Shown here one piece after another: positions 3,309 through 10,635 of a stretch of 10,635 bases of DNA. The DNA comes from a virus. Under the pieces are notes generated by a model, which was not told the DNA's origin, did no database searches, and saw only the letters and a list, made by a program, of their open reading frames with translations. Each line of letters starts with the position of its first letter. The first letter of the stretch is position 1. The DNA is taken from the UHGV virus genome UHGV-1749175; one strand, given 5' to 3'. Position numbers and translations under genes: made by a program.

Positions 3309-3491
3309 ATGATCATGCTGATTCTCGCGCCTCTGGTGGGCGTGCTGGGGGCGCTTTTGCTGGCGTATGGTGCCTGGCTGATTTATCCCCCGGCGGGGTT
3401 TGTTGTTGCCGGGGCGTTGTGTCTGTTCTGGTCGTGGCTGGTGGCGCGATATCTCGACCGTACACAGCTGTCTGTCGGCGGAGGTAAATAG
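3309..3491 (+). CDS. Small hypothetical membrane protein (60 aa, two predicted TM helices)
   Basis: Starts 11 nt after the large-terminase stop; GAGG 5 nt upstream of ATG 3309. Two hydrophobic segments ([23 protein letters not shown] and [17 protein letters not shown]). Stop TAG 3489-3491 overlaps the portal GTG start by 1 nt. No family recognised. Confidence 0.45.
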
Positions 3492-5374: not shown

Positions 5375-6580
5375 ATGGCGGTTGATATTAAAGATGTCGA
5401 ACAGGTCGCGCAGGAGCTACAGCAGAAGTTTGACGACTTCAAAGCAAAGAACGACAAGCGCGTGGATGCGATTGAGCAGGAAAAAGGCAAGCTTGCCGGG
5501 CAGGTGGAAACCCTGAACGGGAAACTCAGCGAGCTGGAAAATCTCAAAAGCGATCTTGAAAAAGAGCTGCTTGAGCTGAAACGTCCGGCAGGTGGCGCGC
5601 AAAATAAACTGGCCACCGAGCATAAAGAAGCGTTTGTGGGCTTTTTGCGTAAAGGCCGTGAAGATGGTCTGCGCGATCTGGAGCGTAAGGCATTGCAGGT
5701 GGGTACCGATGAAGACGGTGGCTACGCCGTGCCGGAAGAACTGGATCGCAACATTCTTAACCTGCTGAAAGATGAAGTGGTGATGCGTCAGGAAGCCACG
5801 GTGATCACCGTTGGCGGTTCCGACTACAAAAAACTGGTGAATCTTGGCGGCACGGCTTCCGGATGGGTGGGGGAAACGGATACGCGATCCCAGACTGCCA
5901 CCTCCAGACTGGAGCTGATTGAACCTCTCATGGGGGAAATCTACGGCAACCCGCAGGCTACCCAGAAAATGCTGGACGATGCCTTCTTCAACGTGGAGGC
6001 CTGGATCAACAGCGAGCTGGCAACCGAATTTGCCGAACAGGAAGAAATTGCCTTTACCTCAGGCGATGGCACCAAGAAGCCGAAAGGGTTCCTGGCGTAT
6101 GAATCCACTGATGAAACCGACAAGGTCCGGGCGTTCGGCAAACTTCAGCATATTGTATCCGGCGAAGCGACTGCGGTGACCGCAGACGCCATTATCAAAC
6201 TGATTTACACGCTGCGTAAGGCACACCGCACTGGCGCGAAGTTCATGATGAACAACAACAGCCTGTTTGCCATCCGTCTGCTGAAAGACAGCGAGGGTAA
6301 CTATCTGTGGCGTCCGGGGCTGGAGCTGGGGCAGCCGTCCTCTCTGGCGGGTTACGGTATCGCTGAAAACGAACAGATGCCGGATATCGCCGCTGATGCG
6401 AAAGCCATAGCATTTGGTAACTTCAAACGGGGTTACACCATCGTTGACCGTATCGGCACCCGCATTCTGCGTGACCCGTACACCAATAAACCGTTCGTCG
6501 GTTTTTATACCACCAAGCGCACCGGCGGGATGCTGGTCGATTCGCAGGCCATCAAACTGCTGAAGATTGCAGCGGCGTAA
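5375..6580 (+). CDS. Major capsid protein, HK97 fold, with N-terminal delta (scaffold-like) domain
   Basis: AGGAG at 5362-5366 before ATG 5375. The first ~100 aa are strongly coiled-coil-like and charged (KFDDFKAKNDKRVDAIEQEKGKLAGQVETLNGKLSELENLKSDLEKELLELK), as in HK97 gp5 delta domains; the C-terminal ~280 aa resemble a capsid body. No separate scaffold gene is present. Confidence 0.9.
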   Translation: MAVDIKDVEQVAQELQQKFDDFKAKNDKRVDAIEQEKGKLAGQVETLNGKLSELENLKSDLEKELLELKRPAGGAQNKLATEHKEAFVGFLRKGREDGLRDLERKALQVGTDEDGGYAVPEELDRNILNLLKDEVVMRQEATVITVGGSDYKKLVNLGGTASGWVGETDTRSQTATSRLELIEPLMGEIYGNPQATQKMLDDAFFNVEAWINSELATEFAEQEEIAFTSGDGTKKPKGFLAYESTDETDKVRAFGKLQHIVSGEATAVTADAIIKLIYTLRKAHRTGAKFMMNNNSLFAIRLLKDSEGNYLWRPGLELGQPSSLAGYGIAENEQMPDIAADAKAIAFGNFKRGYTIVDRIGTRILRDPYTNKPFVGFYTTKRTGGMLVDSQAIKLLKIAAA

Positions 6581-6587
6581 TCACTCA

Positions 6588-6616
6588 GGGGCGCGGAACC
6601 GCGCCCCCTGTTCTGA
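6588..6616 (+). terminator. GC-rich hairpin directly after the capsid gene (candidate partial terminator or mRNA-stabilising stem-loop)
   Basis: GGGGCGCGG (6588-6596) pairs with CCGCGCCCC (6599-6607) around a very short loop, followed by the T-containing stretch CTGTTCTGA. The U-tract is weak, so read-through is likely. Confidence 0.4.
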
Positions 6617-6629
6617 CGGGTGAAGAATC

Positions 6630-6830
6630 ATGATCCTGAAACAAGATCTGAAATGGTCACCGGACGGTATGCGTGTTGAGGTCATTCGGGCCGGTGAGTA
6701 TGACGACGGGGCGCTTCCTGCCCGGGTGCAGGAGATTGCACTTCAGGCCGGGTTAGCAGAGCGCGGAATCAGTGCAAAAAGCAGTAAAGCGGCAAAAGAG
6801 AAAAAAGCCACGACCAGTAAAGAGGGCTGA
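6630..6830 (+). CDS. Small hypothetical protein (66 aa, hydrophilic, Lys-rich C-terminal tail)
   Basis: ATG 6630 lies 14 nt after the hairpin. Stop TGA 6828-6830 is 2 nt before the connector gene start, and the connector SD (AGAGGG, 6821-6826) lies inside its 3' end. No family recognised. Confidence 0.45.
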   Translation: MILKQDLKWSPDGMRVEVIRAGEYDDGALPARVQEIALQAGLAERGISAKSSKAAKEKKATTSKEG

Positions 6831-6832
6831 GT

Positions 6833-7156
6833 ATGCTTCTGACAATGGAAGAGATTAAAGCCCAACTCCGGCTGGATGAGGATTTCGATACTGATGACCG
6901 CCATCTGCAACTGCTGGCATGTGCGGCACAAAAGCGGACGGAAACGTATCTGAACCGTAAGCTCTATGCACCGGATGAAACCATTCCGGACAGCGATCCG
7001 GACGGGCTGCACCTGCCGGATGATATTCGTCTGGGGATGCTGATGCTTATCAGCCATTTTTACGAAAACCGCTCGTCGGTTACGGAAGTGGAGAAACTCG
7101 ACATGCCGCAGAGTTTTGGCTGGCTTGTCGGCCCGTACAGGTACTTTCCGCAATGA
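6833..7156 (+). CDS. Head-tail connector protein (gp6-like)
   Basis: 107 aa. N-terminal EEIKAQLRLDEDFDTDD ... LLACAAQKRTETYLNRKL ... ISHFYENR matches the recognisable pattern of gp6-like head-tail connector proteins. AGAGGG SD before ATG 6833. Stop overlaps the next start (ATGA at 7153-7156). Confidence 0.75.
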   Translation: MLLTMEEIKAQLRLDEDFDTDDRHLQLLACAAQKRTETYLNRKLYAPDETIPDSDPDGLHLPDDIRLGMLMLISHFYENRSSVTEVEKLDMPQSFGWLVGPYRYFPQ

Positions 7157-7563
7157 AAATTCGTCAGGCGCAGACCAGCGCAACCTACATTCTGCCGGAC
7201 CCCGGCGAACTGAATAAACGCGTCCTGATCCGCCAGCGGGTGGATATGCCCGCGGATAACTTTGGCGTGGAGCCTCAATACCCGGTTGCGTTCCGGGCAT
7301 GGGCGAAGGTTATCCAGACCAGTGCCACCACCTGGCAGGAAACCGCGCAGACCGGGGACGCCATCACCCATTACATCACCATTCGCTACCGCCGGGGGAT
7401 CACCGCTGATTATGAGGTGGTCTGTGATGACAGTGTGTACCGGGTGAAACGTCAGCGCGATCTGAACGGGGCGCGGCGCTTTCTGCTGCTGGAGTGTACG
7501 GAACTGGGCGAATTTACGCAGAGTCACGGAGGCAGCAATGGCGACTCCCTTTTTTCACGTTGA
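7153..7563 (+). CDS. Head-tail adaptor / head closure protein (SPP1 gp16-like)
   Basis: 136 aa. Motifs THYITIRYRRGIT and RFLLLECTE resemble the conserved core of phage head-tail joining proteins. ATG coupled to the upstream stop. Confidence 0.75.
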   Translation: MKIRQAQTSATYILPDPGELNKRVLIRQRVDMPADNFGVEPQYPVAFRAWAKVIQTSATTWQETAQTGDAITHYITIRYRRGITADYEVVCDDSVYRVKRQRDLNGARRFLLLECTELGEFTQSHGGSNGDSLFSR

Positions 7564-8044
7564 TGTTCAGCAGCCCGCGGAGATGCGCTTTAACCGCGCC
7601 CGTGTCCGGCGGGCGTTTGTCACGATTGGGCAGCGTCATATGCGTGATGCCCGTCGGCTGGTGATGCGCCGTGCGCGGTCGGTACCGGGTGAAAACCCCG
7701 GTTATCAGACCGGACGCCTGGCTCGTTCGATTGGTTACATGGTGCCGAGAGCCAGTAAAAAGCGAGCCGGTTTTATGACACGCATTGCCCCTAACCAGCG
7801 CAACGGGAAGGGGAACCGGATGATCTCTGGTGACTTCTATCCGGCGTTTCTGTTTTTTGGTGTCCGGGGAGGAGCAAAACGTCGTCGTAGTCATCATCGT
7901 GGTGCATCCGGTGGCAGCGGCTGGCGGCTGGCTCCACGTAATAACTTTATGGTGGAAACGCTTGAAAAGAACCGCAGCTGGACACGCTATTTTCTGGCGC
8001 GGGAATTGCGTAAATCACTGAAGCCGGAGCGACGACACAGATGA
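7538..8044 (+). CDS. HK97 gp10-family neck/tail-completion protein
   Basis: GGAGG at 7527-7531 is 6 nt before ATG 7538. Translation contains TGRLARSIGY and YPAFLFFGVRGG, resembling the GxLRRSI and YAxFVEFGT signatures of the HK97 gp10 family. Overlaps the adaptor 3' end by 26 nt. Stop TGA 8042-8044 overlaps the next ATG (8041). Confidence 0.7.
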   Translation: MATPFFHVDVQQPAEMRFNRARVRRAFVTIGQRHMRDARRLVMRRARSVPGENPGYQTGRLARSIGYMVPRASKKRAGFMTRIAPNQRNGKGNRMISGDFYPAFLFFGVRGGAKRRRSHHRGASGGSGWRLAPRNNFMVETLEKNRSWTRYFLARELRKSLKPERRHR

Positions 8045-8588
8045 AACTGACGCCTGTTATTGCTGCGCTGCGTGCCCGCTGCCCGTATTTTGAAAACCGG
8101 GTGGCAGGCGCGGCACAGTTCAAAAATCTGCCGGAGGTCGGAAAGCTGAGACTCCCGGCGGCGTATGTGATTCTCCGGGAGAAAACAAAAGCCAGACCGA
8201 CTACTGGCAGGAGCTGAAAGAGGGTTTCTCCGTGGTTGTCATACTGAGTAACGGGCGTGATGAGCGCGGTCAGTTTGCCTCGTATGATGTGGTGGACGAT
8301 GTCCGGCAGATGCTCTTTAAGGCTCTGCTGGGCTGGAACCCGGAAGCGTGCGGTAACCCGATTACCTATGACGGCGGCACGCTGCTGGATCTGAATCGTC
8401 ATGAGCTGATTTATCAGTTCGATTTTTCGGTCATCAGCGAGCTGACCGAAGACGATACCCGCCAGCAGGATGACCTGAACAGTCTGGATGAACTGCGAAC
8501 GCTGGCGATTGATGTTGATTATCTCGATCCCGGTAACGGGCCTGACGGCGATATCGAACATCACACCGAAATAACCCTTCCTTCCTGA
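8041..8588 (+). pseudogene. Neck/tail morphogenesis gene apparently interrupted by a -1 frame break near 8185-8195 (alternative reading: two separate small genes, 8041..8217 and 8232..8588)
   Basis: ATG 8041 (coupled to the gp10-like stop) opens a protein-like frame (MKLTPVIAALRARCPYFENRVAGAAQFKNLPEVGKLRLPAAYVILREKTKA...) that ends at TGA 8215-8217 after a junk-like tail (RPTTGRS). A second frame, open from 8094, is junk-like upstream but protein-like from about 8193 (QTDYWQELKEGFSVVVILSNGRDERGQFASYDVVDDVRQMLFKALLGW...) through 8588. The switch point coincides with the A-rich tract GAGAAAACAAAAGCC (8179-8193). Together the two parts would give one protein of roughly 180 aa. Confidence 0.45.
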
Positions 8589-8596
8589 GAATCTTC

Positions 8597-8764
8597 ATGT
8601 TTGTGAAACCTGTTAAAGGGCGGTCAGTGCCTGACCCTGCCCGCGGCGACCTTTTGCCCGCCGAAGGGCGAAATGTTGATGAGAACAACTACTGGCTGCG
8701 CCGTGAAGCAGCGGGTGATATCCGGCGCGTGAATGAAAAGGTGAATACCGATGACGAGCTTTAA
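8597..8764 (+). CDS. Small conserved-looking protein upstream of the tail sheath (55 aa; resembles the small DUF-type proteins that precede Mu-like sheath genes)
   Basis: Not in the supplied ORF track. ATG 8597 to TAA 8762-8764 translates to MFVKPVKGRSVPDPARGDLLPAEGRNVDENNYWLRREAAGDIRRVNEKVNTDDEL. Its 3' end overlaps the sheath start (8751) and contains the sheath SD (AAGGTG). No strong SD of its own. Confidence 0.5.
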   Translation: MFVKPVKGRSVPDPARGDLLPAEGRNVDENNYWLRREAAGDIRRVNEKVNTDDEL

Positions 8765-10244
8765 CACCATTCCGTCAAATACGCTGGTTCCGATTTTTTA
8801 TGCGGAAATGGATAACTCGGCGGCGAATACTGCACAGGACAGCGGAGCATCGCTGCTGATTGGTCATGCCAATAACGGTGCAGAGATTGTTGCCAACAGT
8901 CTGGTGCTGATGCCATCGGCAGACTATGCACGCCAGATTTGTGGTGCGGGAAGTCAGCTGGCGCGTATGGTCGAGGCTTATCGCCAGACCGACCCGTTTG
9001 GTGAGCTGTATGTGATTGCCGTTCCGGAAGCCACAGGCGCGGCGGCAACGGTTACGCTGACGGTGACCGGGGAAGCAACCGAAAGCGGCACGGTGAATGT
9101 CTATGTGGGACGTACCCGCGTGCAGGCTCCGGTGACCAACGGCGATAACGTCACGACGATTGCCAGCAGTATCAAAGATGCCATCAATGCCGTTCCGGCC
9201 CTGCCGTTTACGGCTTCATCTTCGGCAGGCGTGGTCACACTGACCGCGCGTCATAAGGGGCTTTGCGGGAATGAAATTCCTGTCAGCCTCAATTACTACG
9301 GCTTCGGTGGGGGCGAAGTGCTGCCAGCGGGCGTACAGATTGCCGTGGCGACGGGTACCGCCGGAACGGGTGCTCCGGTTCTCACCGGCGCGGTGGCTGC
9401 AATGGCGGATGAGCCGTTTGATTATATCGGCCTGCCGTTCAACGACACGGCCTCCGTTAACACGCTGGTGACCGAGATGAACGATACCAGCGGTCGCTGG
9501 AGCTATGCGCGTCAGCTGTATGGTCATGTGTATACGGCAAAGATCGGCACGCTGTCAGAACTGGTGACCGCAGGTGACCAGTTTAACCAGCAGCACATTA
9601 CCCTGGCGGGATACGAAAAAGAGACCCAGACGCCTGCCGACGAGCTGGCGGCAAGCCGTACCGCCCGCGCAGCGGTGTTTATTCGCAACGATCCGGCACG
9701 TCCCACGCAGACCGGTGAGCTGGTGGGTATGCTGCCTGCGCCGAAGGGGAAACGGTTCACGATGACCGAACAACAGACCCTGCTGTCTCATGGCGTGGCA
9801 ACGGCGTATGTCGAAAGCGGGGTGCTGCGCATTCAGCGTGATGTCACCACGTACAGGAAAAACGCTTACGGTGTTGCGGATAACAGCTACCTCGACAGCG
9901 AGACGCTGCATACCAGCGCGTATGTGCTGCGCAAACTGAAATCCGTCATTACCAGTAAGTACGGGCGTCACAAGCTTGCCAGCGACGGTACCCGCTTTGG
10001 TCCCGGTCAGGCGATTGTCACACCGGCGGTGATCAAAGGGGAACTGCTGGCAACCTACCGTCAGCTTGAGCGTGCGGGGATCGTGGAAAACTACGAACTG
10101 TTTAAGCAGTACCTGGTTGTGGAGCGTGATGCCAGCGATCCGAACCGCCTGAACACGCTGTTCCCGCCTGACTATGTTAACCAGTTGCGTGTCTTTGCCG
10201 TGGTTAACCAGTTCCGTCTTCAGTATTCAGAGGAGTCTGCATAA
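8751..10244 (+). CDS. Contractile tail sheath protein (Mu gpL-like)
   Basis: 497 aa. N-terminus MTSFNTIPSNTLVPIFYAEMDNSAANTA is typical of Mu-like sheath proteins; size matches (about 495 aa). AAGGTG SD 7-8 nt before ATG 8751. Stop TAA 10242-10244 overlaps the tube gene ATG. Confidence 0.85.
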   Translation: MTSFNTIPSNTLVPIFYAEMDNSAANTAQDSGASLLIGHANNGAEIVANSLVLMPSADYARQICGAGSQLARMVEAYRQTDPFGELYVIAVPEATGAAATVTLTVTGEATESGTVNVYVGRTRVQAPVTNGDNVTTIASSIKDAINAVPALPFTASSSAGVVTLTARHKGLCGNEIPVSLNYYGFGGGEVLPAGVQIAVATGTAGTGAPVLTGAVAAMADEPFDYIGLPFNDTASVNTLVTEMNDTSGRWSYARQLYGHVYTAKIGTLSELVTAGDQFNQQHITLAGYEKETQTPADELAASRTARAAVFIRNDPARPTQTGELVGMLPAPKGKRFTMTEQQTLLSHGVATAYVESGVLRIQRDVTTYRKNAYGVADNSYLDSETLHTSAYVLRKLKSVITSKYGRHKLASDGTRFGPGQAIVTPAVIKGELLATYRQLERAGIVENYELFKQYLVVERDASDPNRLNTLFPPDYVNQLRVFAVVNQFRLQYSEESA

Positions 10245-10615
10245 TGGCCCGTATCGGGGGAACCTGTTATTTCAAAATTGACGGTCAACAGCTATCGCTG
10301 ACCGGCGGCATTGAGGTGCCCATGAACAGGACGGTCAATGATGACATCATCGGCCTGGACGGTTCAGTGGACCGCAAGGAAACTCACCGTGCGCCTTATG
10401 TCAAAGGGACTTTCAAGGTGCCGAAGAATTTTCCGGTGAACAAAATCACCTCGTCTGATGAGATGACCATCACTGCCGAGCTGGCGAACGGTCAGGTCTA
10501 TGTATTGTCGTCTGCCTGGCTGCACGGCGAAGCGAACCATAATGCCGAAGAAGGCACGTGTAGATTCAATCTGTCAATGCAACACCCCTTTCAATTATCT
10601 CTTTCGGTGTTTTGA
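10244..10615 (+). CDS. Tail tube protein (Mu gpM-like)
   Basis: ATG 10244 overlaps the sheath stop. N-terminus MARIGGTCYFKIDGQQLSLTGG and its position directly after the sheath gene fit a myovirus tube protein. The last ~18 codons lie in a noticeably AT-richer stretch, so the C-terminus/stop position is uncertain. Confidence 0.7.
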   Translation: MARIGGTCYFKIDGQQLSLTGGIEVPMNRTVNDDIIGLDGSVDRKETHRAPYVKGTFKVPKNFPVNKITSSDEMTITAELANGQVYVLSSAWLHGEANHNAEEGTCRFNLSMQHPFQLSLSVF

Positions 10616-10635
10616 ACTTCAGTGTCTTTCTCGGT

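Follow-up and report, generated by a model that had tools for sequence, protein, structure and literature searches.

Genomic context of the small gene

The window analyzed here is the whole stretch of 10,635 nucleotides from the virus genome UHGV-1749175, and its DNA is 96-97% identical to the Shigella/E. coli temperate phages SfV, SfI, SfII, SfIV, and SKA5. The late region is of the SfV type, starting with genes for a spanin, an HNH endonuclease, the small and large terminase, the portal, a protease, and an HK97-type capsid protein, and continuing with those for the adaptor, head closure, Neck1, tail terminator, DUF2635 protein, tail sheath, and tail tube. Two further short ORFs in the same region are conserved phage genes: one of 60 aa between the terminase and portal genes (3309-3491), matching phrog_502 ('membrane protein'), and one of 66 aa after the capsid gene (6630-6830), matching phrog_1020 (E 2e-44), which is sb7 in ST64B and is unannotated in SfV.

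The tail terminator gene (8041..8588, + strand) is a pseudogene of the Mu gpK/gp37 type, the counterpart of SfV orf9, with matches to Pfam Phage_tail_terminator in both halves. Relative to SfV and to a prophage of Edwardsiella hoshinae, it lacks 13 bp between 8167 and 8168, a deletion by which the gene is broken into ORFs of 58 and 118 aa; this junction was not seen in the other loci with which it was compared. Terminators of the gpK/gp37 type are labeled 'portal protein' in PHROG 209 and in RefSeq NC_000929.1, NC_027382.1, and NC_013594.1, a name at odds with Pfam Phage_tail_terminator, with the GenBank record of Mu, and with the Mu cryo-EM structure; the label is probably a propagated misannotation.

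Downstream, the Mu-type tail sheath gene (8751..10244, + strand) encodes a protein of 497 aa with matches to Pfam Phage_sheath_1, domII, and 1C and to PHROG 165 (E 2e-230). It is 99% identical to the SfV sheath and is the presumed functional partner of the DUF2635 protein. The tail tube gene that follows (10244..10558, + strand) matches Pfam Tail_tube and is truncated. In a base-by-base comparison with SfV, its homology ends at 10558 and is followed by an IS30 end (10559-10635, TGTAGATTCAATCTGTCAATGCAAC...), identified by its IS30 matches among E. coli genomes. It takes the place of the tube gene's last ~13 codons, and the 123-aa ORF at 10244-10615 is a tube-IS chimera. The frameshift in the terminator gene and the IS30 in the tube gene mark the prophage as defective. 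The small gene itself is intact; however, it lies in a decaying tail module and probably no longer contributes to a working tail.

The 55-codon open reading frame

Between the terminator and sheath genes, the ORF listing and translation give a frame of 55 aa on the + strand, from ATG 8597 to TAA 8762-8764, exactly as described in an earlier, sequence-only reading of the window. Its product (translation of 8597..8764) is MFVKPVKGRSVPDPARGDLLPAEGRNVDENNYWLRREAAGDIRRVNEKVNTDDEL, followed by the stop. Of these residues, 21 of 55 are charged, with a net charge of about -1 and no repeats, in agreement with the charged, non-repetitive composition stated by that reading. The core domain of the protein comprises residues 1-47 (8597..8737, + strand), as delimited by AlphaFold2 pLDDT and conserved columns, and an acidic C-terminal tail comprises residues 48-55 (8738..8761, + strand), which is predicted to be disordered and varies in length and sequence across the family.

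At the upstream junction (8586..8596, + strand), the stop of the terminator gene (TGA 8586-8588) is followed by 8 nt of spacer before the small gene, with a weak GAGA Shine-Dalgarno-like element 7 nt 5' of ATG 8597. At the other end, the overlap with the start codon of the sheath gene that had been claimed was located as 14 nt (8751..8764, + strand) read in another frame from the sheath ATG at 8751, and the sheath Shine-Dalgarno sequence AAGGTG (8738-8743) lies within the small gene. Inside this overlap, a 3-bp deletion at 8756/8757 relative to SfV removes one codon from each gene and leaves both frames intact. The resulting 55-aa allele is 100% identical at the protein level to three IMG/VR prophages. 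A scan of 6500-10635 gave no promoter-like sites, and no terminator-like sites were found between 8588 and 8751. A regulatory RNA structure at the overlap of the small and sheath genes was considered and dropped, as the fold there is ordinary (z = 0.75).

The window contains 75 ORFs of at least 40 aa, and an open frame of 55 codons is therefore unremarkable by its length alone. With so many ORFs of similar size, the case for a small gene rests on comparison.

Family identity and existing annotation

The small protein belongs to Pfam DUF2635 (PF10948), scoring 61.8 bits against a cut-off of 26.6 (E 5e-17), with its residues 3-47 aligned to profile positions 1-45 of 46. It also matches PHROG 208 ('unknown function') at E 7.2e-26, residues 1-53 falling on profile positions 4-57 of 64. 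The search of Pfam and PHROGs that the sequence-only reading had proposed as a check thus returned a family from both collections. All 29 aligned relatives of the small protein also match DUF2635. Neither the protein nor these relatives match any other Pfam family, and no NCBIfam model matches the small protein.

At the protein level it is 96% identical to SfV orf10, annotated as 'similar to phage Mu GP38', and 40% identical to Mu gp38. The gene is annotated in SfV, SfI, SfII, SKA5, Mu, and RefSeq E. coli genomes, with the name 'DUF2635 domain-containing protein' in RefSeq and 'protein Mup38' in SKA5; the corresponding stretch, in which PGAP names the gene, is found at a query coverage of at least 80% in 1,067 of 5,426 complete E. 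coli genomes. By sequence, the small gene is the known DUF2635/PHROG 208 gene, a homologue of SfV orf10 and Mu gp38; it is already known and routinely annotated, and not new. The description 'unlisted' is thus correct for the ORF track from which the sequence-only reading was made and incorrect otherwise, given the annotations in SfV, Mu, and RefSeq. None of the papers in the library searched mentions DUF2635, and searches for Mup38, FluMu protein gp38, PFL_1215, tailocin cryo-EM, and gp38 proteomics gave nothing useful.

Coding signature

A word-indexed search yielded 124 close homologues, all with PF10948, and an exhaustive profile search yielded 2,216 representatives at 50% identity (E<=1e-3). 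For the selection analysis, a 126-nt core was taken from 111 loci, which gave 53 distinct nucleotide sequences. The pooled dN/dS in the small-gene frame is 0.21, and this frame is free of stops in all 53 sequences, whereas each of the other five frames is interrupted in 38-51 of the 53. Across the 42 codons, the third position is variable in 40, the first in 24, and the second in 19. Two opposite-strand ORFs, at 8434-8688 and 8624-8770, were rejected as spurious because of stops in most homologues.

Conservation at the amino-acid level spans prophages of Enterobacteria, Aeromonas, Pseudomonas, Burkholderia, and Alphaproteobacteria. W33 is invariant across 133 diverse members, in which P5, D13, P14, L20, P21, G24, V27, R35, R36, and D41 are near-invariant. 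In the alignment, the conservation ends after about residue 45, and the C-terminal tails are rich in A, K, P, and E.

The comparative coding signature on which the sequence-only reading had made the gene depend is therefore present, and in the proposed frame alone. The open dN/dS-constrained frame and the Pfam and PHROG matches agree with its view of a real small gene, and in sequence terms the 55-codon frame is a genuine gene under purifying selection.

Another explanation would be a non-functional peptide: the ORF could have arisen by chance, or it could be an upstream ORF that matters through its translation only, by delivering ribosomes to the start of the sheath gene. It is short and stands among many spurious ones, its own Shine-Dalgarno element is weak, and a sheath-start overlap is seen in nearly all loci (see below), which are features that such a peptide would have. 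Against this are the wide amino-acid conservation, a dN/dS of 0.21 confined to the small-gene frame, a confidently predicted fold, the reuse of the domain at the N-terminus of large proteins encoded far from sheath genes, and the presence of a separate Shine-Dalgarno sequence for the sheath. With these observations, a non-functional peptide is extremely improbable.

Predicted fold

AlphaFold2, run with the 29 aligned relatives, gave a model with a mean pLDDT of 82, reaching about 88-92 for residues 1-40 and falling below 50 for residues 48-55. The predicted elements are strands at residues 2-5 and 42-45, short bridges between them, and a helix at residues 31-39 with the YWxRR motif. Overall, the model is a compact beta/alpha domain some 45 residues long, to which a short, disordered acidic tail is appended.

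Foldseek gave no significant relative of this model in the PDB (best E 0.85), and no family member was found among PDB sequences searched with the single protein, a narrow profile, and a broad profile. In BFVD, a collection of predicted viral structures, the best match is a 68-aa protein of Agrobacterium phage 7-7-1 (prob 1.00, TM 0.71), which is taken to be gp125, the only 68-aa ORF adjoining the 7-7-1 sheath gene.

Gene order and coupling to the sheath gene

The sequence-only reading placed the ORF where Mu-like tail modules carry a small gene before the sheath, and the window does have this arrangement, with the ORF between the terminator (8041-8588) and the sheath (8751-10244), as in Mu and SfV. 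The comparison with related tail modules suggested by that reading extends this to a common order, terminator-DUF2635-sheath-tube, kept in SfV, ST64B, P27 (in which the small gene is unannotated), Mu, and Burkholderia phage BgVeeders33. The same order is found in 26 further loci from other genera, namely Edwardsiella, Kosakonia, Pantoea, Erwinia, and Mangrovibacter, as well as Buttiauxella, Lonsdalea, Chromobacterium, Pseudogulbenkiania, and Aeromonas.

The junction with the sheath gene is close in nearly every case: in 33 of 34 loci, the small-gene stop abuts or overlaps the sheath ATG, at -1, -4, -11, -14, or -17 nt. The sole exception is L037, with a gap of at least 225 nt (about 10156-10382 and beyond) and sheath similarity that begins later. 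The spacing between the small gene and the terminator gene varies among loci; in L017, about 1 kb (about 8940-10000) is inserted between terminator and DUF2635, leaving the DUF2635-sheath junction unbroken.

To obtain a sample unbiased by the query, loci were also seeded on the tail tube protein, with 71 loci fetched and 55 of them covering the pre-sheath region. A family member is located directly before the sheath in 46 of the 55, in 22 as a classic DUF2635 ORF whose end meets the sheath start, and in 24 as a small ORF of a divergent branch in the pre-sheath slot. Nine of the 55 loci have no HMM match at the sheath start; among these, L151, L152, and L159 resemble the family on visual inspection, L186 carries an ORF of the divergent branch some 250 nt upstream of the sheath, and in the remaining five the terminator gene immediately precedes the sheath.

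Members of the divergent branch have 76-150 aa and share the motif V.V.P...L.HP.G.GF...G...WP.D.FT.RR..DG.V. Divergent pre-sheath ORFs of this kind were recorded in L143, L146, L153, L156, L160, L166, L174, and L178, and also in L180, L182, L184, L185, L188, L192, and L194. In hhalign, the branch aligns with the family over the whole domain (82% probability, E 1e-5), and Pfam DUF2635 gives weak matches in 10 of 14 of its members. As the branch is recognized weakly by Pfam, the range of the family is wider than the Pfam footprint.

The gene is also present in a tail without a head. Pseudomonas phage DVM-2008 is a tail-only element beside cinA and recA, in which prtR, com, a holin gene, and a colicin-M-like gene are followed by terminator, DUF2635, and sheath, and then by tube, tape measure, Mu-type baseplate, fiber, and lysis genes. 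No capsid, portal, terminase, or head-tail adaptor genes were found in this element. The retention of DUF2635 in a headless, tailocin-type cluster indicates that the function of the gene concerns the tail itself. Together, these loci show that the DUF2635 gene is tail-specific and tied to the sheath gene.

Long members with an N-terminal DUF2635 domain

The DUF2635 domain begins no later than residue 25 in every one of the 262 family proteins examined. A length of at least 120 aa is reached by 8 of the 150 listed representatives at 50% identity, and the domain is at the extreme N-terminus in all eight. Fusions of DUF2635 to the sheath were expected among these long members, and their architectures proved otherwise. 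P0153 joins DUF2635 to an fn3 domain and is encoded in a neck module, between the adaptor and head-closure genes. P0247 (756 aa), a tailspike-like protein, joins it to a SASA-type esterase and is encoded in the fiber region after homologues of Mu gp47/gp48, and P0219 is likewise encoded in a fiber region downstream of gp47/gp48 homologues. P0194 (737 aa) has an Asp-box-like motif, read from the sequence, and lies in a Gly_rich_2 context on a short contig that does not reach the baseplate genes, and P0210 belongs to the pre-sheath members, at a greater length of 137 aa.

Over its C-terminal 450 aa, P0247 shows homology to annotated tail fiber/tailspike proteins of Klebsiella and Serratia phages and of the Mu-like phage KS10. 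Its prophage (IMG 2585427600, loci L123/L124/L196; GCA_900141905.1, contig FQZF01000018.1) has two DUF2635 domains: the one in P0247, encoded after a Mu gp48 homologue and a Gly_rich_2 protein, and a standalone copy of 58 aa, which is located before the sheath and overlaps the sheath ATG. Gly_rich_2 proteins also accompany long DUF2635 forms in L012 and L013. The nearest relatives of the fused DUF2635 domain are standalone pre-sheath genes.

At least some long forms thus carry C-terminal parts typical of virion-displayed proteins. Their layout is that of an N-terminal particle-binding anchor, which argues for stable virion attachment in those phages and against a non-virion reading. Similarly to the head-binding domain of the P22 tailspike and the N-terminus of T4 fibritin, DUF2635 stands N-terminal to linkers and receptor-binding or enzymatic modules in P0247, P0194, and P0153. 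The family differs from these anchors in having no detectable sequence or fold relation to them, and in that its members are mostly standalone, about 55-70 aa long, and free of any payload.

These architectures bear on the possibility that the DUF2635 protein is a stable yet inconspicuous virion component, whose domain would attach to the exterior of the Mu-type tail, at the sheath surface, the terminator-sheath junction, or the baseplate rim, leaving its C-terminal tail on display. In that case, the standalone protein would represent the minimal form of an anchor that elsewhere bears tailspike, fiber, or adhesin modules. In support of this are the N-terminal position of the domain throughout, the long forms with fn3 or SASA esterase, the match of the P0247 C-terminus to tail fiber/tailspike proteins, and the location of P0247, P0194, and P0219 in the fiber region (two of these contexts follow Mu gp47/gp48) and of P0153 in a neck module. 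The variable, low-complexity C-terminal tails are also as exposed parts would be, and the authors of the Mu structure list gp38 as 'probably structural' from its gene position (PMC11915804). Against it, long forms are rare (the 8 of 150 listed representatives), no PDB chain matches the family, and the virion data from two relatives, described below, are negative. Considering both sides, a place in the virion, also as a docking protein bound loosely or at sub-stoichiometric levels, is possible and somewhat unlikely.

Virion evidence from relatives

The small gene of Mu, Mu_38, is named 'putative sheath terminator protein' in GenBank AF083977.1, with no reference given. A sheath terminator would form a ring capping the last sheath layer, separately from the tube terminator, and apart from the GenBank label, the location of the gene between the terminator and sheath genes and the use of two terminators by T4 (gp3/gp15) and P2 (gpR/gpS) (PMC11784142) are in favor of such a role. 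However, in the Mu cryo-EM structure of 2025, hexameric gp37 serves as the cap for tube and sheath alike, and its C-terminal beta-hairpin fills out the handshake sheet in the last ring of the sheath (PMC11915804). The head, neck, terminator-tail region, and baseplate of Mu were modeled at 3.2-3.8 A with almost all structural proteins placed, and gp35, gp38, and gp41 'could not be resolved' (PMC11915804). Mu gp38 is missing from the 3.5 A terminator-tail map, and mass spectrometry and SDS-PAGE are nowhere mentioned in that paper (PMC11915804). The capping of the sheath by gp37, with gp38 not in the map, contradicts the label of Mu_38 and largely refutes a separate sheath terminator.

The other relative is gp125 of phage 7-7-1 (68 aa), the pre-sheath ORF between the terminator gp124 and the sheath gp126. 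It belongs to PHROG 208 (E 6e-7) and aligns with the family in hhalign (E 1e-4). As in the window, it is a small ORF before the sheath, and it is the best BFVD match of the window protein; unlike the window protein, to which it is about 20% identical, it is separated from the sheath by a 6-nt gap in place of an overlap. It is the sole member with direct, negative virion data from both a proteome and cryo-EM. The virion proteome of 2012, in which all six-frame stop-to-stop ORFs were searched, detected 24 proteins, including gp124, gp126, gp127, and a peptide of 3.2 kDa, and gp125 was not detected (PMC3517404). The cryo-EM models of 2025 cover the neck, terminator, sheath, tube, baseplate, and fibers at 3.0-3.6 A and do not include gp125. 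In these models, gp124 contacts the sheath as gp37 does in Mu, without gp125, which also argues against a sheath terminator.

Known sheath terminators differ from the small protein in size as well: T4 gp15 has about 270 aa and P2 gpS about 150 aa, far above a core of about 45 residues. Like the DUF2635 gene, their genes are located beside those of the sheath and terminator; however, they have no sequence relation to the small protein, whose Pfam matches are limited to DUF2635. With neither a sequence nor a fold relation to this group, and with capping performed by gp37 in Mu according to the literature, a role as sheath terminator is very unlikely.

For a virion component of any kind, the Mu neck, sheath, and baseplate maps at 3.3-3.8 A and the 7-7-1 maps at 3.0-3.6 A contain no model of the protein, and the 7-7-1 proteome did not detect it in spite of finding a protein of 3.2 kDa. 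The absence of family members from virions is negative evidence that agrees between both phages and both methods; a protein that is small, flexible, sub-stoichiometric, or easily shed could escape maps and proteome.

Proposed role of the DUF2635 protein

The window gene resembles those of Mu gp38 and SfV orf10 in its slot between a gpK-type terminator and a gpL-type sheath on the same strand, and in the same stop/start overlap. It differs in lying in a defective prophage, and its product differs from SfV orf10 in being one residue shorter and in a K-to-E change. The small gene is a late gene of an SfV-like prophage, expressed as part of the tail operon, where it follows the terminator gene and precedes the sheath gene. 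Because its last codons overlap the sheath start, the DUF2635 and sheath proteins are made side by side from one mRNA. Translationally coupled neighboring genes often encode interacting proteins, as a general tendency, and on this basis the DUF2635 product is suggested to act with the sheath protein. The absence of relatives from finished virions suggests that it most likely acts during assembly.

In the mechanism proposed, the protein would be an accessory factor specific to the tail, docking onto the sheath protein or the growing sheath-tube polymer during tail assembly, for which the chances are judged to be about even. It might keep new sheath subunits assembly-competent, or alternatively it might time sheath polymerization relative to capping by the terminator. 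The DUF2635 protein would then not be retained as a stable, ordered part of the finished particle.

Small tail-operon proteins that function in assembly include the tail assembly chaperones, such as lambda gpG/gpGT and Mu gp41/gp41-T, which are needed for assembly and absent from mature tails. The DUF2635 protein is like these in its size and operon, and Mu gp41 is also among the proteins missing from the virion structure. Unlike the DUF2635 gene, the chaperone genes lie between those for the tube and the tape measure and are expressed with a programmed frameshift (Mu_41/Mu_56), whereas the DUF2635 gene is pre-sheath, has no frameshift signal, and has no homology to them. The protein is thus not a chaperone of the gpG/gpGT kind, a slot that is held in relatives by SfV orf13 and Mu_41/Mu_56.

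A sheath-linked assembly factor is favored here over a structural protein, and this role is deduced from gene coupling and from the virion data of relatives. For the 'small structural or assembly protein' suggested by the sequence-only reading, the structural half is accordingly disfavored by the Mu maps and by the 7-7-1 proteome and maps, and the assembly half is plausible by the same deduction.

A broader reading would join the two lines of evidence. DUF2635 would be a sheath partner delivered co-translationally, which captures new subunits or marks the growing end and leaves before or at capping, and also a portable docking plug, which some phages would have fused to tailspikes and adhesins to attach them to Mu-type tails. 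This combined reading is speculative and on balance improbable. If the co-translational part were true, phage contractile tails would have a type of assembly factor that has not been described for them.

Significance for Mu-type tails

In terms of annotation, the result is routine, and it illustrates that short conserved tail genes are real even when they fall under ORF-length cut-offs. Of wider interest is a protein of about 45 residues that is encoded before the sheath in most Mu-type contractile tails and tailocins and is under purifying selection, in a family without a representative in two near-atomic virion structures and in one virion proteome. A role as assembly factor or docking module, if true, would also correct the 'putative sheath terminator' label of Mu gp38. 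In either of these roles, the DUF2635 protein would be relevant to the engineering of tailocins and of Mu-type phage tails.
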